This document shows positions 26,664-56,700 of a DNA stretch of 64,000 bases, piece after piece. Positions within the stretch are counted from its first letter, which is position 1. Each line of letters starts with the position of its first letter. Source of the DNA: a virus (lineage: Duplodnaviria; Heunggongvirae; Uroviricota; Caudoviricetes). Under the pieces are notes generated by a model that worked only from the letters and a program-made list of their open reading frames with translations, was not told the origin of the DNA and did no database searches. Where the stretch lies: IMG/VR virus record IMGVR_UViG_3300042691_005779; one strand, given 5' to 3'. Position numbers and translations under genes: made by a program.

Positions 26664-29600
26664 TTAAATACAATCTGTACAATTTGCTGTTCCAGATAAC
26701 TCACATCCTGGTGGTGGTGGAGTAGTAGTTGTTGTTGTGGTTGTACTAGTAGATGTACTAGTAGTAGTTGTTGTAGTTGTTGGTACAGGACAGTTAACAA
26801 AGTTTCCTCCACTAGCATTAAGATTAAAATATACTATTGTATATGCACTTATTGATGGAATTATGAAAGGATTTGATTTGCCACAAAGAGATGTAAAATC
26901 TCCACTAGATGCACCTGTTCCATATTGAATATCATTACCAGATGTATCAGTTATAGCAAGATACACTGTAACTCCTCCATTAAATATTGTACCAGCAAAA
27001 TTATCATAAAGTGGATAATCACTAATTGGGAATGTACTTGTTATCCATAGTGTCCAAGTTGCACCAAAGTCTGTACTATACCATAACTGTATTAATTGTC
27101 CAGTATTAGAAAATTCTGATATTCTCCAATCAACATTGTAGAAAACACTTGATGTTGTAGTGGTAGTTGTGGTTGGTGTAGCAGTGGTTGTGGTAGTTGT
27201 AGTGCTTGTACTACTAGATGTTGTAGTTGTAGTAGTGATTCCACAATCTATACACTCTGCTGTACCAGACAAGTTACAATATAAAATTGTTGTGGTAGTA
27301 GTTGTAGTGGTTGGAGAAGGAATCTCTGTAACTGCCACTGCTGTGATATCACAACCTTCATTTAATCCAGAATAGAAGAAGTTATTTTCTCCTATATAGA
27401 AGTTAGGAATGTATGTATGGAAACTTACCCAACTCTTAGTGTTTAGGTTAAATGAAGCAGTCCATGATTTGTTACAGAAGTATTCTAAGTCTGTTACATT
27501 TATAAACCTCTTCACTGATGTATTACCAGCAGTTGGTTGGTTTACATAAAACTCTTTAGCCACTTCATCATAGAATATTTCTTTTCCTGGTTGAGGAATA
27601 TAGTCTAGTTTAGTGATGATGATTCTTTCAAACTTGCTGTCAAATACACCATGTAATCCAATACCCTTGAAGTGATTATCTGTATCAATATTAGGAAAAT
27701 ACCTTAATATTTCAAATGATAAATGGTCTGTAAAGAATCTATTTAACCCAGAACCAAAGCCTGATATATCTGTTGCTTGGGTGCCTTGGATTAAGAATAT
27801 CTGTCCTCTCTTGGCATCTACAGTAACTTGACCTTGTGGTATTCTAAGTAACATCTTGTTCTGACATCCTACATATCCAAGGTCTGTTTCTGCAAAGTCA
27901 ATTGGAGGTGTATTGCCAAATAAATCACCACCTCCTAAATATGCAGCCTGAGGATTGCTTGTGTCAATAGTTAATAAGTTATTGTATAACAATGTCTTAT
28001 TCTCAAATCTAGCTAAGGTTGCTCTGTTCTGTATACCATCTAGAGATACTAAGTTACCATAGTTTTGAGGGAAGTCAAAGAAGTTCACTGGACGATATAT
28101 CAACCAGCTATTTATTCTGTTATCAGAATAGCTTTCTTGTCTATCAGAGTATATTGCTCTGAATGGAAAATGGGTGTAGCATAATTGCTGTACCCAATCT
28201 GCAGGCAAATGAGAGAAGAAGTTCTCTACGTTTTGCTTAGTGAATGTTGTATTGTAATAGTAAGTGTTATCAAATGCAATAGGCACTCTACTTTCTTGGA
28301 ACCATTGGTCAGGAATACCTGAGCTCACATGTGGGTAGAAGTCACCCTCCAAGTTGTTGAATGCTTGACGTAAGTCTACATTGATAGAACTCTCTACATA
28401 GTAATAAGGAATACCATATGCAAACAAATACATTTTGCCACCATATGTGTAGTTCAAAGAACCAGCCACCACTGTTCCTGGAGGAGGTGTTGTAGATGTA
28501 GTTGTTGTACTAGTTGATGTTTGTACAATATTATCATTAGGACAATCAAAATAATGTGCTTTGGTAGATATGATGTTCTTCATCAATGTACCACCCACAT
28601 AGTAGTCTGATAGGATAGATCTAGCTGAGTGCCAGTATTGTGGGTAAGCCACATTACCAATCTCATCATAGTAAATGTCACTGTCATCAGGAGCATTCAC
28701 TCTATTATCAATAAAGAATGGAAGTTTAGTTTTGAATCCAAACTTACCAATGAATGTATCACCACCAAAGATAACCTCAGGATCATTTGCAGGGAGAGCA
28801 TTAAATATTCTTTGGAATCCTGTATCAATTGTTTGATATGAATATATCTGTCCCCACTGTCCATTATTGATTGTCTTGATTGAACCATAATATGAAACAA
28901 CCTTTATATCTTCTTGAGCCTCAGGACTAGCACAGTTATCTACTTGTGAAATTGTAAATCTTGAAGTATCACTAATTTGACTTACACCTGCTACAACAAG
29001 ATTTGGTGTTTTGTTAGGATATGGTAAAGCTGGTACAGCTCCCACTCCAGTTCTTGTTTCAATACTCTTGGTATATACTGATGATTCTCTGTTCCAGTTG
29101 TTGATGTCATAGTTATCTCCCACAGATTGAACACCTGGGAAAATGTACTGTGACTTATCAAGTTGTCTTTGCTTAACTCCTTGATCATTAGGAATATCTA
29201 CACTATAGTCATAGCTAGATCTAGAATTAAAAGAATATGCAAAGTTTTGTCTACTGATACCATTTATATAGATCTGTAGATATGTTTGATATGCTGTGAA
29301 GAATGCTGAAGCATTAAATCCTCCTAGGTCAGCTATTGCTTTACTAGAGTTCAAAGCACTGATTTGTGTTTGCTCAGTGAGAAGTTTGTACATAGCATGC
29401 TTCTCCACTTTAACAAAGTGGGCCCTACCAGCACCAAACAATACACTCTCTAGCTTAAGAACATTACCTAATGTAGGTTGTCCAAAAGATGTTTCAGGTG
29501 AGTTAAACACCTGTCTGTATGGTGATTCATTATTATTAAACCCATCTAGCTTTTGAGGATAGCAGGCAAGGTTTTCATTAGTGTTAGCAGCAACAATAGT

Positions 29601-45033: not shown

Positions 45034-47616
45034 TTATTTAGTTTTCTTAGCTCTTCCTTTAGCATTCTCTTTGGCAATAGCTAGATCATTTGCTTGGTTC
45101 TCTCTGCTCACTTTAATCTTCTCTTTCTCTACGTTAAGCTTCTCCATTGCCAGCGTGTGTTTGTTTTGAATATCAGACAGCTTGGTTTGATAATCTCTCT
45201 GAGCTCTAGTTTGTTCTAAAGCTAACTTGCTGATTTCCAACACATCAGGAGTTCCTGATGCATCAATGTCTGACAATGGACCACCCTTAGACTCTGCTGC
45301 AATAAGTGCAATCTCTTTCTTATTGATTCTATCCATCTCAGCGTTGTAGTTGTCATTAGCAATCTTCTCTGCTTGTTGTTGCATTTGCAACTGTAATTGA
45401 GCTTGACCAAGTTGTTGCTGTTGTTCAAGTTCTTGTTGCTTCTGTTGTAATTGCTGATTTTGGATTTCCTCTTGTCTCTCTTTAAGTGTCTTAAATACCT
45501 TCTTCATTTGTCTGATTGAATTGGTGCTGTAAAGCTCAATTACATCATGTAATGATCCACCATTCTGAATAACAGCTTGAGACAATCCTCTAATCTCGTT
45601 GAATGCTTCTCTATCTTCAGGTCTGTTAGTTAAGTAAACTTTTAAATCTCTGAATCTAAGGTCTGTACCATTTACAGATACAAATGCAGATTCTCCCTCA
45701 TTAGTAATATAAGAGATGGTTGATTGTGGTTTCTTAGCTTCTACATACAAAGCTGCATCAATGATGGCTTGGTAAAGCTGACCCATAATATATTCATGTG
45801 CTACAAACAAAGGTTCTGTCTGAGCATAAGATTGTGTAATAGCTGCGTTGGTACCTGTAGCTGATTCACTAGCAGTTACAGATCCAAGTCTTTGTCTTGA
45901 CATACCTATAAGTTCCCAACATTCATTCTTTATCTGTTGTGCTAGAGTATATCTTGCTTGGATCTCCTGTGTACGTGTGAGGTCTAAACTGGTATATTGG
46001 TTGAAGCTAGAAGGACTCTTCAAGTTCTCTGGGCTGTCATCCACAAATACCACACCTCTGTTACGTGCTTCCATTTCCCATACATCAAGAGCATCTTGTG
46101 CATCTCCATCCTTAGGAATAGGAATGTGTCTGATAGACATTAACTGAACCTTACCCACCTCTTTCTCAAGGAGTTTATACAACTGGTTCATACAAACGTT
46201 GTATATAACTTGGAAAGGTTTCATCATGTCTACCAAGCTCTTAGCTTCTGTATTCTTCACTTCAAAGGTTTGGCCAATGATAGGACAGTAAGGTAATAAC
46301 TTGTATGGTTTGATATGATAGATGTCTGGTCCAATCTTGATACCTTGATACCATTGGTTAATCCAACCCCACTCTAGAGAAATCTCTGTAGGAATTGTCT
46401 TACTCTTATAGTTTTCATCAACAAGCATAGATTGCTCATTGCCCATTTCATCTGTGTAGATTAACTTACCAATCTTCTTCTTAGAGATCCAATAAGCTCT
46501 AACAACAACATACTTATAACCAAATGAGCTTACATTAGATGTAAGTCCCAAGAAGTCTTGAAGTCCATCATTGTTCTCTTTCATTTCAGACTCAATGATC
46601 ATTCTAGTTTGTAGAACAAGAGGGTCGTATGTATCATATTGAACAGAGTCAATACCTGGAATAGCGTTAGGATTACCAAGGTTTGATTCACGTACGTTGA
46701 TAAGACCATAGTCTTGTAAAGAACTACGTAAGTGATCTATTTCTTCTTTAGTCAGGTCAGGAATAGCTTCAATGATTTCAGATAGTTCCATAACTTGTAC
46801 AATACCAGCAGCATATGCTCCTTGTGCACGACCTGTAGGATCTGAAATCCACTTTCTATCTGGTGTAGTTAAGAACCAAGTGTTCTTAGGGTTAGCCACC
46901 TCAATGTTAAATCCAAGCTTTGAGTTGTCTTCATATATATGGAAGAACTCTCTAGCAGAGATTAGTAAGTCTCTGAATGAATCTTCTCCTTTCTCTTTTA
47001 AATTAAACTCAACCTTCTGAGATGTAAGAATGTGGTTTGCCCACTTCTCTGCTGTAGATGTGTAAGAATCTAATTCATCCTTCACCTCATCAAGAGTCAT
47101 CTGAGTTAGTTCCTCATCTTCAATCTCTTGACCTTCAGCCATAGCCTTTTGCTGTATCTTCATTTTAGCTTGACTGACAATGTAGTTATTTAACATTTCA
47201 GTTTTAAACTCTAGCTCTTCAGCTTTACTATCATCATCAAATGCTTTGACACGAAATGCGTCAGGTCTTTTGGAAATCTCTCCTACTAGTTCATTGATAG
47301 GAGTGGTCATTATAGAATAGTGTTTCACATAGGCAGGAAGTTCAAGATCTGCTGTGAGCACATCTGTAAAGCTTCTAACTTCTGGTTCAACATAAAAGTC
47401 TTCTCTTCTTAAAATACCTTTAACAAGGTCATAGTTCTTTACAAATGTATCTCTGCTCTTAACATACTCAGCATAAGCTTTGTTTGCAAAGTAGTCCATT
47501 GTGTTCTTCACCCAACTCTCATCCTGCTTCTCCTTATCAGTTTTAAACTGATCTGGAAATATGTTCAAATAGGCATACCTTATGGTAGCGTCTTTCGTAT
47601 ATCTTATAATTGCCAT
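45034..47616 (-). CDS. Portal protein candidate (860 aa)
   Basis: Large ORF immediately downstream of the terminase large subunit (TerL); C-terminal coiled-coil and Gln-rich tail; synteny only. Confidence 0.55.
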   Translation of the reverse strand: MAIIRYTKDATIRYAYLNIFPDQFKTDKEKQDESWVKNTMDYFANKAYAEYVKSRDTFVKNYDLVKGILRREDFYVEPEVRSFTDVLTADLELPAYVKHYSIMTTPINELVGEISKRPDAFRVKAFDDDSKAEELEFKTEMLNNYIVSQAKMKIQQKAMAEGQEIEDEELTQMTLDEVKDELDSYTSTAEKWANHILTSQKVEFNLKEKGEDSFRDLLISAREFFHIYEDNSKLGFNIEVANPKNTWFLTTPDRKWISDPTGRAQGAYAAGIVQVMELSEIIEAIPDLTKEEIDHLRSSLQDYGLINVRESNLGNPNAIPGIDSVQYDTYDPLVLQTRMIIESEMKENNDGLQDFLGLTSNVSSFGYKYVVVRAYWISKKKIGKLIYTDEMGNEQSMLVDENYKSKTIPTEISLEWGWINQWYQGIKIGPDIYHIKPYKLLPYCPIIGQTFEVKNTEAKSLVDMMKPFQVIYNVCMNQLYKLLEKEVGKVQLMSIRHIPIPKDGDAQDALDVWEMEARNRGVVFVDDSPENLKSPSSFNQYTSLDLTRTQEIQARYTLAQQIKNECWELIGMSRQRLGSVTASESATGTNAAITQSYAQTEPLFVAHEYIMGQLYQAIIDAALYVEAKKPQSTISYITNEGESAFVSVNGTDLRFRDLKVYLTNRPEDREAFNEIRGLSQAVIQNGGSLHDVIELYSTNSIRQMKKVFKTLKERQEEIQNQQLQQKQQELEQQQQLGQAQLQLQMQQQAEKIANDNYNAEMDRINKKEIALIAAESKGGPLSDIDASGTPDVLEISKLALEQTRAQRDYQTKLSDIQNKHTLAMEKLNVEKEKIKVSRENQANDLAIAKENAKGRAKKTK

Positions 47617-49655
47617 TATGAAAACAATTTATTGCGTTTATATTTATTTTTTGATCTTCCAAACATATCACCTCTAGCATCAGTGAAAAGCACATTGCCT
47701 CTTTTCTTCTTAAACATAGATGTCACTCTTTCATCTGATGTACCTCCTATCTTTCCCATAATTGGATCCATCTTTAGAGCCTGTGCTATGGCAAGTTCAG
47801 CAGCTACAATTCTATCGAAGTTACCTTGGTCATTATACTGAATAACTTCTTCTAGTAACACAGGATCAAATATCTTGCTCACACCTAACACTTCTCTAAC
47901 CACTTCACCAGCTTCATTTGTCTCTTTGAATATGGCATTTTCCATATACTTCTTAAGACACGTGTGAAGATAGTCAATAATCTTCTCTGATGAACGATGG
48001 ATACCATAATCTCTTTTTACAGTGGTGTTTGGTACAATCTCTTTCAGCCATTCAGGTTGTTTCTCTAAATAATGAGCATCCCCTTTAGCTTTCATATATT
48101 CAATGAAGGATATATCATCATTCTCACACAAGGTTCTAGCGTTGTAATACTTGATAAGTAGGCGAGCTTGTTCTTCCCAAGTTTCTTTCTTATCAGGTCT
48201 TGCACAATACGAAGCTACGAACATATCCTGATATTTCTCACCAGTAATTTCATGCATCCTCTTATATATGTATACAGACCCTAGTGAACTTGAATAAGCA
48301 GATTTACCTTGTCTGTATGGATCGACCCCAGCTACGTACAATCCATAAGGAGGATTGTCTATTGGGAATTCATATATTACGACAGGTGCATCTTTCTGAT
48401 CTGAGTTTTTCAGAGGGAAGTTTGTAATAGGAAGCTTGTCTGTAAACTCATGTTTTATAACTCCTTCATCATTAAACAACACAACAGGAGTACCTGTTCT
48501 TTCTTGTTGTAACAATCTATTCTTCTGTCTCTTAGCTATCTCAATATCAAAGATGTTTGTATCCTCATTTAAAAAGATGTCATCCACCTCCATTGGGTAG
48601 TACATCTTTTCTTTTAAATAGGCTATTCTATCTCCAGCTTTCTTAAGCCTGGTCAAGTTATCATTGGTTATTTGAAGAGCTTTTTCTTCATTGCTGACAA
48701 GCATCTTCACCTGATGTAGGTCTGAACTTAATGGTTGATCTAGATATTCTCCTAGTGTGGAGTCTTCCTTAGCTTCCATTCTATACTTTGCTGGGATGAA
48801 CAAGCCATGAACACGTTTGTCATCCTTATCATTATTGTATGTAAGGAAGTTAAAGTTGTCTACGTCAAACATCAAGCTCTTGGCATCCATGAATTTCTTC
48901 ATGTCACCACCTGTACCTGTAAGGATGGGGCTACATCCCCAACCAAATGGTGTGGTAAAACCTGGAATTGCAGCTTGTAATCCACGTAAGAAGTTACCTT
49001 TACCTATCTCATCAATGATGAGCTTTCTAGGTTTTGTACCTGCGATGGCTTCCTCATTGTTACCTTCATCAAGGTTACGTATTAGAATGGAAGAGAATGG
49101 GATACGTTCTCCACTCTTGGTTTTTATACCTAGTGTAACCTGGTTTTTCCAGTTATCCTCAATTCTCTGCCATCTCCAATACTCAGGGATGAAATTCAAC
49201 CCTTTGTCAATCTTATCAGTAATCAGTTTAATATCTGGGGCATTTAAGCCTGCAATGATATTCTGACTGTTTTCATCAAAGGTTGCACCCCATGCAATAT
49301 AGGATGCTTCTAAAACTGACTTGGCAAAACGTCTAATACCTAGAATGACTAAGCCTCTTTTATCTTTTTGAGCTCTGTCAATTTCGTTTGTCACAAGCCA
49401 TTCATTATCTCTCAATAGGGGATTGGCATATTTCTGTGCAATCCTTCCATAACTATCAATTACATCCACCTCTGTGTGCCAGATGTTTAGGTGCCAATAA
49501 AGAAAGGGGTTAATATAAACCCCACCCATCATTGCACCATTTAAACAAAGATCCTTATGAAAATCATGAAAGGGTTTGCACTCTTCACTATTTCTATCAG
49601 GGATCCTTTTCTGGTTAATGAACCAATCCTTATAGTCTATAGTTTGTATGTTCAT
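47616..49655 (-). CDS. terL: Terminase large subunit (679 aa)
   Basis: Walker-B-like KPRKLIIDEIGKG. C-terminal RNaseH-like nuclease signature YVAGVDPYRQGKSAYSS. Position upstream of the portal gene. Confidence 0.7.
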   Translation of the reverse strand: MNIQTIDYKDWFINQKRIPDRNSEECKPFHDFHKDLCLNGAMMGGVYINPFLYWHLNIWHTEVDVIDSYGRIAQKYANPLLRDNEWLVTNEIDRAQKDKRGLVILGIRRFAKSVLEASYIAWGATFDENSQNIIAGLNAPDIKLITDKIDKGLNFIPEYWRWQRIEDNWKNQVTLGIKTKSGERIPFSSILIRNLDEGNNEEAIAGTKPRKLIIDEIGKGNFLRGLQAAIPGFTTPFGWGCSPILTGTGGDMKKFMDAKSLMFDVDNFNFLTYNNDKDDKRVHGLFIPAKYRMEAKEDSTLGEYLDQPLSSDLHQVKMLVSNEEKALQITNDNLTRLKKAGDRIAYLKEKMYYPMEVDDIFLNEDTNIFDIEIAKRQKNRLLQQERTGTPVVLFNDEGVIKHEFTDKLPITNFPLKNSDQKDAPVVIYEFPIDNPPYGLYVAGVDPYRQGKSAYSSSLGSVYIYKRMHEITGEKYQDMFVASYCARPDKKETWEEQARLLIKYYNARTLCENDDISFIEYMKAKGDAHYLEKQPEWLKEIVPNTTVKRDYGIHRSSEKIIDYLHTCLKKYMENAIFKETNEAGEVVREVLGVSKIFDPVLLEEVIQYNDQGNFDRIVAAELAIAQALKMDPIMGKIGGTSDERVTSMFKKKRGNVLFTDARGDMFGRSKNKYKRNKLFS

Positions 49656-51579: not shown

Positions 51580-51828
51580 TTATGCATCAAATCTTCTGAA
51601 TACAGCTATAAAGCAAAACAAAAGGAGCCCTATTCTGAGCTCCTGTTCAAGACCACCTTCTGTAAGGGTGTAGTTTCTATTAGACACACCTAGCTCAAAG
51701 TTATTAAAGTCTGTAGGCATAAGTTCTACACCTATCTCCCATTCATCGAAATAGTAGAATCCCCATCCTATTACACCTATTATCATCAGCACCAGTGTAC
51801 CAACCAGTATTTGTACGACTATCATCAT
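51580..51828 (-). CDS. Small two-TM membrane protein (holin-like?), 82 aa from the first ATG; the track start at 51867 is a GTG
   Basis: The track ORF 51580..51867 starts on GTG. The ATG at 51828 gives MMIVVQILVGTLVLMIIGVIGWGFYYF ... LLLFCFIAVF. Its stop codon lies inside a copy of the recurring 15-nt motif. Confidence 0.3.
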   Translation of the reverse strand: MMIVVQILVGTLVLMIIGVIGWGFYYFDEWEIGVELMPTDFNNFELGVSNRNYTLTEGGLEQELRIGLLLFCFIAVFRRFDA

Positions 51829-51867
51829 ATCCAAGCTTCTTTGTCGAGGGAGGAGTTTATTCCCCAC

Positions 51868-52347
51868 CCTCCACCCTCAAAGGTAATGGTAATTAATATT
51901 ACCCACCAAATTTATTTTTATATGCCTACAAATATAATGTCCCTTATAAGGACCATATTATATGTATATGGGTATAATATGACACATTATGTAAAGCAAT
52001 AGCTTTACAATATGTAAAATAAGTAAAGCTATAGCTTGACACTTTTGGCAGAATATAGCTGTGTTATATCTTGCCAAATGTCTAGTTTATTTACTAAAAA
52101 ACTGGACAAATCAGGAAGTGAAACACAGCCAAATTAGGAAGTCTGCATGAATTTTTCCAAAATTTCATGCAATGTTCCATAATGGAACTATCCCCTGCTT
52201 TGGGCAACAAAATTTTCTAGCCCCCCTACCCCTTTTGTATGTATAGGAGGAGAGGGTACTTCCCATTGAAACCCCTCCTTGTTTTGATGAGGTTGGGATA
52301 CCCCTCCTCATTGCAATTAATCATTTCACAATTTAAAACGAAAAACA
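51868..52347. promoter_or_regulatory. Divergent control region between the minus-strand virion block and the plus-strand early block; dense in palindromes and iteron-like repeats (candidate promoters, operators or origin)
   Basis: GTAAAGCWATAGCTT direct repeats (51991-52008, 52023-52040); perfect palindromes AAGCTATAGCTT (52026-52037) and GTTCCATAATGGAAC (52174-52188); TGCATGAA-N12-TTCATGCA (52144-52171); ACCCCTCCT repeats (52271, 52300). Confidence 0.55.
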
Positions 52348-52782
52348 ATGGCATTTAAATTAGAAGCCTACGTAAGACAAAACTCAACAGTAGTAGATGA
52401 AAACCAAACTCCACTTGATGTGGCAGGTCCTAATGGCAGTCTCTCATTGAGCAAAAAGAACATCCTTGACATCAACAAGCAAGTTGCTTTGGAAATTGCT
52501 GATGGCACAACTGATGCTAATGGCAATCCTCACAAAAAATGGCTTGCTTGCTCTGTACCATTGAGTAAAGAGATTAGAAGAAAGTTTAAAGCAGGTGCTT
52601 CAATGCAACAAATCATTGACAGCATTGCTGCATTGAAGATTGTCTTCAAAACAGAGACACAACGTCATTGCTTATCATTGCCAGGCGAGAAGCAAATGTT
52701 CACAAGCCAAACAAAAGACATCAATGCTGTGGCTTTTGAAAGAAGCGAAGAGTTCTCACCAGAAGACCTTGTTCACCTGTAA
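52348..52782 (+). CDS. Early protein, 144 aa, function unknown; first gene of the plus block
   Basis: ORF with ATG start, followed by a strong terminator. Confidence 0.5.
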   Translation: MAFKLEAYVRQNSTVVDENQTPLDVAGPNGSLSLSKKNILDINKQVALEIADGTTDANGNPHKKWLACSVPLSKEIRRKFKAGASMQQIIDSIAALKIVFKTETQRHCLSLPGEKQMFTSQTKDINAVAFERSEEFSPEDLVHL

Positions 52783-52792
52783 GGGTGAATGT

Positions 52793-52832
52793 AACAAGAG
52801 AATAGGCTTAATTGCCTGTTCTCTTGTTTTCA
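52793..52832 (+). terminator. Rho-independent terminator (AACAAGAGAATAGGC-loop-GCCTGTTCTCTTGTT then TTTT)
   Basis: 15-bp stem with 1 mismatch; U-tract; 10 nt after the stop codon. Confidence 0.7.
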
Positions 52833-53303
52833 TATACATAGGGTGGGGCAAAATGATAATTGTTAGGGTTGGGCTCTGTTAAAAACATAACATAACACAT
52901 TGATTCTCAATATTTTATCTGTGAAAATGTGAGAAGGTGTGTGTTCAATTGACCCTTTCTTATACATTTTAACAACATTCAAAAACCAGCTATACATTAA
53001 CAATATATATAGCATTAAATAACAATATTATACATTATTAGATAACGATGCCTTAAAGTTTGACTATAAGCTATTATATGAGTTTTAGCCTTAGAAAGGT
53101 ATAGTCTTGGAACATTTGTTCTTGCATTGTTATCTATGTATGTATGTATATTATTAATATAATGTACCATTTCTATTTCCCAAGGATAGACAGATGTAAT
53201 GTACGTATTAAAACTAACGTCCTTTTGACCAGGTTGAAACAACCGTAGAATACATTACATCTGAGTACAGAGGGATTTTACACACATATTAAATAAAAAA
53301 CAC

Positions 53304-56140: not shown

Positions 56141-56383
56141 ATGTCTTACAGTCTAGTCTTTAGTGCTAAACCACATAGCACACGTACCATTACAGTGTAC
56201 GAACCAACAACAGAAACAGCGTCTCCTTATGTTAAAACAATTAGAGCATGCTCTAAGCTAATAGATGCCATCTTTGCAGCTAAAACACAGCAAAGACCAA
56301 CTAAGCGTATACATATGAAAGGACGCAAATATATGTACATCAGCTCTGATGAGTATAAACTAGTCAGAGTAAAAAACTTCTAA
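56141..56383 (+). CDS. Hypothetical protein, 80 aa
   Basis: ORF. Confidence 0.4.
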   Translation: MSYSLVFSAKPHSTRTITVYEPTTETASPYVKTIRACSKLIDAIFAAKTQQRPTKRIHMKGRKYMYISSDEYKLVRVKNF

Positions 56384-56421
56384 GATGATATATTTTATTA
56401 TCTTTGTGTTAGTCATCTTTA

Positions 56422-56461
56422 ATATATGGCTGTCCTATGAGTTTCATAGGGCACCATATAT
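56422..56461 (+). other. 40-nt nested perfect hairpin ATATATGG-ctgt-CCTATGA-gtt-TCATAGG-gca-CCATATAT
   Basis: 8 + 7 bp perfect stems with a symmetric internal loop; intergenic; no U-tract. Confidence 0.45.
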
Positions 56462-56493
56462 GGATGATGATGGTCACATAATAAACAAGAAAA

Positions 56494-56700
56494 ATGATAT
56501 TACAGTTAAATCCAATGATACCAATAGTGAGAGTCTGTGATAAGATGGAAGGCTATGCTTTTCTAGTTATTGATTATAGCCAAGAGCATAACCTTTTATT
56601 TACCTGTGCAATGGATGATGGAGAGATATGGACACTGACAAACAAGGAGATTAGATTCTGTAAGAACATATCATTAGAGAGATACAACATTAATTTATAA
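56494..56700 (+). CDS. Hypothetical protein, 68 aa
   Basis: ORF. Confidence 0.4.
   Translation: MILQLNPMIPIVRVCDKMEGYAFLVIDYSQEHNLLFTCAMDDGEIWTLTNKEIRFCKNISLERYNINL

Follow-up and report, generated by a model that had tools for sequence, protein, structure and literature searches.

Operators for host regulators are known from phage control regions, the LexA boxes of CTXphi or coliphage 186 being cases in point, and lambda ori is an iteron origin that lies inside gene O. In bacteria, the cassette that encodes the mobile mystery proteins A and B (MmpA and MmpB) appears to be uncharacterised together with its operators, the literature holding bare mentions of the names. For phage phi14:2 it was established that host RNA polymerase reads the middle and late genes and a virion RNA polymerase the early genes, the early promoter motif being unknown, and that the g004-g005 and g005-g006 intergenic regions give rise to very highly transcribed early RNAs of unknown function (10.1101/2020.03.07.982082). 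Here we analyse a 480-bp non-coding gap (positions 51868-52347) between two opposed gene blocks in a 64,000-nucleotide stretch (referred to as the window) of an uncultivated phage of crAss-like architecture, IMG/VR record IMGVR_UViG_3300042691_005779, of whose genome the window is a part. The original prediction had described this gap as a control region with operator sites for dimeric regulators, an iteron-type replication origin and the switch point between early (plus) and late (minus) transcription, and all the repeats and palindromes that it listed are present in the gap at the coordinates given for them.

The two GTAAAGCWATAGCTT copies noted there, GTAAAGCAATAGCTT at 51991 and GTAAAGCTATAGCTT at 52023, are the left 15 nt of two 18-bp dyads (GTAAAGCWATAGCTTKAC), referred to as A1 and A2, which lie 32 bp apart, and the 12-bp palindrome AAGCTATAGCTT (52026-52037) is the perfect core of A2. 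With the neighbouring 124-amino-acid (124-aa) protein, 80 related viral loci were retrieved. The sites yield the consensus GTAAAGctATagcTTgAC over 54 distinct sites of the lineage, and across 54-64 distinct sites 12 of the 18 positions are near-invariant while the spacers vary freely. Positions 3 and 16 carry the non-pairing combination A/G in 38 of the 54 sites; since these bases cannot pair, selection acts on the sequence and not on base pairing or a hairpin. Start-to-start spacing of the pair was 32 bp in 18 and 33 bp in 16 of 34 related loci, and this phasing is kept among relatives in which the distance of the pair to the promoters on either side is variable. The spacer between A1 and A2 is devoid of -33/-7 or T-rich promoter elements, and no -7 box lies at promoter distance behind the CTTGAC of the dyads. 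Exact occurrences of the 15-mer, as of the other motifs, are confined to the gap in the 64 kb. One near match, GTAAAGCAATAGCTG on the minus strand at 29330-29344, differs from the 15-mer by one mismatch and lies inside a 1748-aa open reading frame (ORF); it lacks both the right half-site and a partner copy and was judged to be a chance or partial match rather than a further A site.

A two-site pattern scan of bacterial genomes, with one genome per species, returned 38 matches where about 0.1 would be expected by chance (assuming 45 bits of information, four gap lengths, two strands and 6e11 bases). Bacteroidota account for nearly all of these matches, with a dozen Pedobacter species, Chitinophagaceae, Sediminibacterium, Cytophagales and Lentimicrobium amongst them, and a few are from Acidobacteriota. 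In 35 of the 38 a homologue of MmpA is encoded directly downstream of the sites, and MmpB adjoins in 30. The arrays contain two to five copies (mode three), spaced by 33 bp in 57 intervals and by 32 bp in 9. Between the array end and the start codon of a 147-152-aa protein there are 1-60 nt, and in 30 cases a Fic-domain protein is encoded next. The former scores 139.6 bits against TIGR02612, mobile mystery protein A (cut-off 122.6), and contains an HTH_3 helix-turn-helix (HTH) of the XRE type; the latter scores 196.9 bits against TIGR02613, mobile mystery protein B (cut-off 124.4), and also matches the PADLOC defence candidates PDC-S04 (1e-16) and SoFic (8e-10). The host sites lie between TTTG and TACTTTTG (which comprises the site end and the spacer), that is between the -33 and -7 elements of Bacteroidota promoters, and this layout is that of an autoregulated operator.

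Comparison of the matrices for 93 host sites and 64 phage sites shows agreement throughout the 18 positions; with the phage sites oriented towards the minus-strand block, this extends to the C/A and T/G asymmetry of positions 3 and 16. The phage pair thus shares with the MmpA/MmpB arrays the dyad GTMAAG-N6-CTTKAC, the per-position conservation, the asymmetry of the half-sites, the tandem arrangement and the 32-33-bp phasing. It differs in consisting of two canonical copies accompanied by variants with wider half-site spacing, in lacking adjoining mmpA and mmpB genes as well as the -33/-7 elements in the spacer, and in its variable distance to promoters. Neither MmpA nor MmpB was found in the window or in 144 viral stretches, and the IMG/VR contigs that encode MmpA relatives are four in number, small and unrelated to this phage. 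Because the two genes and the promoter elements were not found at the phage sites, the pair would represent orphan operator copies and not a member operon. Distant MmpA homologues are accompanied by other 16-18-bp palindromes in the same ~33-bp phasing, which indicates that protein and site co-vary. From this co-variation and from the adjacency in 35 of 38 genomes we infer that MmpA binds these arrays. A solved-structure search with MmpA gave one weak, partial match, to an unrelated HTH protein. Small viral contigs with distant MmpA homologues (L184-L187) carry palindromes such as GGGAGTTTTAACTCCC and GTGTATCANNGNNCAC, likewise phased at ~33 bp and upstream of the gene. A Sediminibacterium metagenome-assembled genome with an MmpA array and a related viral contig (L015) were recovered from one IMG metagenome (3300042673), a co-occurrence that is no proof of a host.

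With moderate confidence we consider the gap to be a divergent transcription-control hub of a crAss-like phage of environmental Bacteroidota, whose ~32-bp-phased dyads would recruit host-encoded proteins. Within it, the A pair is best described as putative orphan operator copies of a repressor that belongs to the host or to a mobile element in the host. The operator part of the original prediction is thereby supported and sharpened, as the pair corresponds to the Bacteroidota XRE-HTH/Fic arrays position by position and in phasing. In such a hub, host RNA polymerase would start leftward transcription at host-type promoters just before the gene of a 95-aa protein, and a promoter of another type would start near 52245 in the rightward direction and yield a conserved leader; given its lack of host -7 boxes, the rightward promoter may be served by the virion RNA polymerase. 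MmpA from the infected cell, or from its mobile element, would most probably bind the A pair cooperatively, in the way that repressors occupy their own operators. The variable promoter distances and the spacer free of promoter elements suggest a role in tethering or titration and no direct occlusion of a promoter. The pair could in this way couple phage expression to the presence of the cassette, or buffer a Fic-based toxin or defence module. A parS-like dyad (D) and the other palindromes would be bound by additional dimeric proteins through which the early promoter on the right is gated, with D probably acting as such a gate.

If this is correct, an otherwise anonymous repeat-rich region gains a named and clonable candidate binder, the MmpA of cultured Pedobacter species. 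The widespread MmpA/MmpB cassette, for which cis-elements were not known before, would gain its first link to phages, through the putative operators that these carry, and if the phage copies are functional, phages would use or defuse an accessory host module by DNA sites alone, with no protein of their own. The LexA-box phages likewise have sites for a protein that the phage does not encode and tie expression to a property of the host cell. In contrast to them, the candidate regulator here belongs to an accessory toxin- or defence-like cassette and not to a universal stress regulon, and the sites are position-independent within the region and travel between unrelated phages along with other palindromes.

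The candidate promoters on the two sides of the A pair differ. TAnnTTTG is the -7 element of the mapped phi14:2 promoter P070 (10.1101/2020.03.07.982082), and the phi14:2 middle promoters (AAAAAAACTTGAC-N18-TATATTTG) share this element with the leftward side of our locus, whereas the rightward side is without it. A minus-strand TAnnTTTG box occurs left of the A pair in 35 of 36 distinct relatives, mostly as the same two boxes 29 nt apart that are present in the window (51878-51914) and that constitute one or more candidate promoters of the host RNA polymerase for the leftward block. A third box, TATATTTG (51936->51929), is shared by the window and three relatives (L040, L043, L049). Plus-strand boxes to the right of the A pair were detected in 4 of the 36 relatives, and none in the gap of the window. 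Sigma-70-type promoters were rejected as a signal, with six found versus 5.0 in shuffled sequences.

On the rightward side, an alignment of the sequence downstream of D comprises 36 distinct sequences, is almost gapless and extends over 88 columns. It contains an A/T tract (CAAAATTTT), a C-run and TTnTATnnAT, followed by a 65-nt block (E) with the motifs GGGAGGRGAG, CTACTCC, ACCCC, GTTGGGG and CCCC. By its position and conservation, the part in front of the block (52208-52244) would be the rightward promoter and E a candidate 5' leader. The C-rich direct repeats ACCCCTCCT of the original prediction belong to E (52271-52279 and 52300-52308) and are parts of a longer repeat, GAWACCCCTCCT, at 52268 and 52297. 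A hidden small gene in E was excluded, with no frame open in more than 23 of the 36 sequences and no 3-nt periodicity. A related motif, TATAYATAGGGTGGG..TAGGGTTGGGC, occurs right past the intrinsic terminator of the first plus-strand gene (window 52834): at 52795-52875 a terminator-like hairpin is followed by TATACATAGGGTGGGG ... TAGGGTTGGGC, an arrangement kept in relatives as distant as L069, L074, L076 and L081. A terminator followed by a conserved motif resembles a new transcription start, and the element is a candidate second early promoter or else a G-rich structural element. The promoter asymmetry and the TATRTAT-GGGNGG motifs together provide a candidate early-promoter signal for a crAss-like virion RNA polymerase. 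The switch-point part of the original prediction agrees with the gene orientation, the -7 boxes confined to the left and the right-pointing promoter-like core.

Module D, located 2 nt past module C, had been described as a 15-bp perfect palindrome. Its arms are indeed perfect (7+1+7), but the odd length bars a palindrome in the strict sense. Relatives keep the arms GTTCC/GGAAC, and it is the centre that drifts (CACGTG, CATGTG, CTTGTG, CATATG, CACAAG). Two distant relatives (L064, L065) carry at this position an exact copy of TGTTCCACGTGAAACA, which has been used as parS in studies of ParB (PMC8299390, PMC6393308), and the other relatives match 10-13 of the 14 specified parS positions. The window site, with half-sites TGTTCCA/TGGAACT, has 3 nt between them instead of the 2 of parS, and the 16-bp parS TGTTNCACGTGNAACA found no match within three mismatches at this site. 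D is a putative drifted descendant of a parS-type site. No ParB-like gene was identified among 19 proteins tested. Measured from the GGGAGG anchor, D is found 58-72 nt upstream in the majority of relatives; in four of them the distance is 85-87 nt, and in L004 and L019 it is about 125 nt. Such a fixed promoter-proximal position recalls the class I operators of KorB (KorB-OB silencing).

Several points weigh against the hub as we have drawn it. That the A pair is bound by MmpA and that this is useful to the phage would be two steps drawn from the same sites; the benefit is speculative, and the phage might be harmed just as readily if the repressor of a defence operon were titrated. A divergent phage regulator of the same specificity could lie outside the window or beyond the sensitivity of the searches. 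The evidence for the rightward promoter consists of conservation and position only, and binding of ParB at the window copy of D is doubtful because of the extra central base. Lastly, A pairs in the context of helicase genes, in a linker in two contigs and just after the gene in a third, favour a role in replication.

These helicase contexts emerged from an exact-pattern scan of IMG/VR for the A site, which returned 62 stretches, about half of them from the same lineage. In the remaining, unrelated viral contigs the site is intergenic in 23 of 31 and often present as a pair at 32-33 bp. One such pair lies 6 nt upstream of a tRNA-Thr gene. In L108 and L143 the pair lies on the antisense strand within the linker of a DnaB-like helicase gene, where it encodes SQAIALL and SQLIALL 11 residues apart, and in L130 it lies 84 nt past the end of a DnaB gene. 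A single A dyad was found between a TerS-like gene and TerL in the L098 family. No gene common to the neighbourhoods of the A sites in unrelated contigs was found. In L098, L115 and L120, the modules A, C, U4, a B-like repeat, X and Y occur in one long non-coding gap before the terminase gene, and as no protein homology was found between this family and the window, the palindromes travel together between unrelated phages.

It is this travel that motivates a bolder interpretation, which we consider doubtful: the region would be a portable "operator decoy" array, a stretch of non-coding phage DNA in which binding sites for proteins that regulate the defence, toxin-antitoxin and partition systems of the host (MmpA, a ParB-type protein and others) are collected and then exchanged by recombination between unrelated Bacteroidota phages. 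Replicating phage sites would then soak up or stabilise these regulators and thereby neutralise or exploit the host systems.

Replication is addressed by another, unlikely alternative, according to which the phased repeats would be iterons, the AT-rich sequence at 51880-51990 an unwinding element, and replication would start at the junction of the gene blocks. Such an origin would be in keeping with the five to seven related sites, which share one orientation, recur about every 32 bp and adjoin AT-rich DNA, and with the helicase-associated pairs just described; an origin has also been predicted at the equivalent junction of the prototypic crAssphage (PMC10983915). The cumulative GC-skew also reaches its minimum at ~51-52 kb, but this turn coincides with the flip in gene direction and is therefore not independent evidence. 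Moreover, identical arrays in 35 bacterial genomes are promoter-proximal, in front of a two-gene HTH/Fic operon in ordinary chromosomal contexts, and the occurrences before a tRNA gene and between terminase genes do not point to replication either. No initiator gene adjoins the gap, the neighbours encoding the 95-aa, 124-aa, HU-like and 144-aa proteins, and a weak Rep-like match (E = 6e-4) is ~9.5 kb away. With iteron origins such as lambda ori the locus shares regular, similar sites by AT-rich DNA and, in L108 and L143, the placement in the linker of a replication gene; it differs in its phasing of three helical turns and not two, in the lack of a cognate initiator nearby and in that the bacterial arrays are promoter sites. 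The iteron origin of the original prediction is thus not supported, given the bacterial copies in promoters, the missing initiator and the confounded skew.

Alternatively, the sites could be the phage's own switch, operated by a phage-encoded dimeric regulator that is not detectably related to MmpA or lies outside the window and that times early and late transcription; the likeness to the host arrays would then reflect shared ancestry of an immunity-type module. We regard this as rather improbable. Divergent promoters with multiple phased operators are the classical layout of a phage switch, small DNA-binding candidates adjoin (the HU-like and the 124-aa protein), and only ~64 kb of the genome is visible. 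On the other hand, the sites recur in unrelated viral contigs that have neither the 124-aa protein nor a common neighbour gene, no MmpA-like gene was found on any of the long related contigs, and phage sites and host arrays have one and the same site matrix. The phage proteins that had been proposed as binders are for the same reason unlikely for the A pair, the 124-aa protein being the sole candidate examined in this way. A faint similarity to winged-helix regulators was seen in this protein, and a solved-structure search with it gave nothing significant.

Even less probable is a structured RNA, in which the palindromes would form hairpins of a non-coding RNA or of an extended 5' leader, much like the abundant intergenic transcripts that phi14:2 makes early. 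The region 51985-52200 does fold with z = -7.6 against dinucleotide shuffles, the phi14:2 RNAs are highly transcribed, and E is gapless for 65 nt past the presumed start. Against this, the Rfam 15 covariance models gave no match at gathering thresholds, and in E-value mode far-sub-threshold chance matches only. For E, RNAalifold returned one invariant hairpin of three pairs and no covarying helices, and the pairing of 52052-52065 with 52122-52135 is without covariation in relatives. The non-pairing bases in 70% of the A sites, dyads of fixed length with arms that are conserved and not compensated, and bacterial A sites that overlap promoter elements upstream of coding sequence likewise argue against an RNA.

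A packaging site or genome terminus, with the array as a pac- or cos-like recognition region upstream of packaging genes, is the least probable of all: the array does head the block with the HU/IHF-like gene and the large terminase, the L098 family has shared modules between the TerS-like gene and TerL, and 29 of the 80 related contigs stop no more than 3 kb away from the 124-aa gene on its plus side versus 3 on the other, but the ends fall at many differing sequences with no fixed site, several of them inside conserved non-coding modules (L002-L081) that are often flanked by variable DNA, and the window and many contigs read straight through. Ends at so many sequences fit assembly breaks at a mosaic hot-spot better than a fixed terminus. 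One contig end (L042) consists of Nextera adapter sequence (CTGTCTCTTATACACATCT).

The A pair is embedded in the most palindrome-dense part of the 64-kb window, the top-ranked 300-bp bins for perfect inverted repeats (stem of at least 7 bp) falling in the gap with 5 per bin against a window mean of 0.55 (sd 0.74). Beyond the elements originally predicted, we identified direct repeat B and the dyads at 51939-51953, 51954-51981, 52041-52081 and 52080-52107 (Table 1). The two canonical dyads are accompanied by three to four degenerate ones at ~30-35-bp intervals. The centres lie at 51967.5, 51999.5, 52031.5, 52061, 52093.5, 52124.5 (midpoint of B) and 52157.5, and the steps of 32, 32, 29.5, 32.5, 31 and 33 bp between them, taken from the coordinates with no significance test, correspond to about three helical turns.

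In at least 35 distinct related viral contigs the array is kept as a colinear mosaic of modules, so that the repeats, whose absence from related phages would have spoken against the original prediction, are in fact conserved. The order P-A-A-(U3/U4)-B-(Y/X)-C-D-E is maintained in relatives with at least ~70% identity in the 124-aa protein, with single modules present or absent in differing combinations, and some modules are 80-95% identical in nucleotide sequence where the flanking protein is only ~72% identical. Module P occurs as pairs 33 bp apart in L005, L019, L020, L021 and L038; a single metagenome scan for host arrays of its palindrome found two satellite-repeat contigs only. The half-sites of U4 resemble those of A but are set 10 bp wider, and U4 also occurs in the unrelated L120, with 93% identity over 28 nt to window 52097-52124. 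In B, CAAATYAGGAAGT is found twice, at 52107 and 52130. In C, the 12-nt centre (52152-52163) has the opposite orientation to that in all relatives with the module, even in L002 and L003 with flanking-protein identities of 99% and 96%; this is a recent small inversion between the 8-bp inverted repeats.

Table 1. Features of the gap and of the adjoining gene blocks, with positions in the window.
Feature	Position	Strand	Remarks
Minus-strand block	1051-51867	-	4055-aa ORF, large terminase, HU-like protein, small proteins
Large terminase	47616-49655	-	PHROG 6681
HU-like 117-aa protein		-	in the minus (packaging/structural) block; PF00216
95-aa small membrane-type protein, first gene of the minus block	51580..51867	-	from the ORF list; sets the left edge of the gap
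-7 boxes TACCTTTG (51885->51878) and TAAATTTG (51914->51907), 29 nt apart	51878..51914	-	Bacteroidota-type, from motif scan
P, imperfect dyad GTCCCTTATAAGGAC	51939..51953	.	GTCCCTTATAAG module in 26 relatives
Inverted repeat CATATTATA-N10-TATAATATG	51954..51981	.	AT-rich stretch; common to closest relatives only
A1, 18-bp dyad GTAAAGCAATAGCTTTAC, putative MmpA-type operator	51991..52008	.	fits the operator matrix of bacterial mob_myst_A arrays
A2, 18-bp dyad GTAAAGCTATAGCTTGAC	52023..52040	.	starts 32 bp after the start of A1
U3, inverted repeat TTTGGCAGAATATA / TATATCTTGCCAAA	52041..52081	.	in about a dozen relatives
U4, 28-bp dyad GTCTAGTTT-N10-AAACTGGAC	52080..52107	.	28 nt long in each of 10 related loci
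B, direct repeats CAAATCAGGAAGT and CAAATTAGGAAGT, 23 bp apart, around GAAACACAGC	52107..52142	+	highly conserved in relatives
C, TGCATGAA-N12-TTCATGCA	52144..52171	.	in 28 related loci and the unrelated L098 family
D, GTTCCATAATGGAAC = GTTCCAT-A-ATGGAAC	52174..52188	.	2 nt past C; parS-like, one extra central base
Promoter-like core: CAAAATTTT, C-run, TTTTGTATGTAT	52208..52244	+	right before the AGGAGG anchor; no host-type -7 box
E, AGGAGGAGAGGGTACTTCC..ACCCCTCC..GGTTGGG..CCCCTCC, candidate 5' leader	52245..52311	+	conserved non-coding 65-nt block
Plus-strand (early/replication) block	from 52348	+	encodes DNA polymerase and DnaB-like helicase
144-aa protein, first gene of the plus block	52348..52782	+	function unknown; followed by an intrinsic-terminator-like hairpin

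The limits of the gap were assessed through the two flanking genes. By tblastn, the protein of the 95-aa ORF is conserved in frame, at 53-95%, in over 20 relatives; this ORF is a real gene and the left boundary of the gap is correct. For the 144-aa gene on the right only one homologous viral contig was found, which indicates that what occupies this position is variable. No tRNA or tmRNA (transfer-messenger RNA) was found in scans of the window. Among 50,697 annotated phage records, blastn found nothing that matches the region, and the terminase (TerL) is 26-39% identical to those of the nearest annotated phages, among them members of Crassvirales, Cellulophaga phages and a Leptolyngbya phage. 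The long intergenic regions of phi14:2 have no motif in common with 51868-52347, and one of them is a tmRNA gene: in the non-coding stretch between g004 and g006 (L082, NC_021806, 4031-4500) ARAGORN calls a tmRNA with the tag GSSVQKLAMVA*.

Two further stretches of the plus block drew attention. One, at 53176-53275 and upstream of a 140-aa gene, contains a long inverted repeat (GACAGATGTAATGTA ... TACATTACATCTG) with TTCCCAAGG and CAGAGGGA as its frame. Conservation of this repeat extends to L021, L056 and L059, and its RNA-fold z is only -2.3. The other, at 56150-56500, ranks second in the window for local density of perfect inverted repeats and lies in a part free of ORFs of at least 90 aa.

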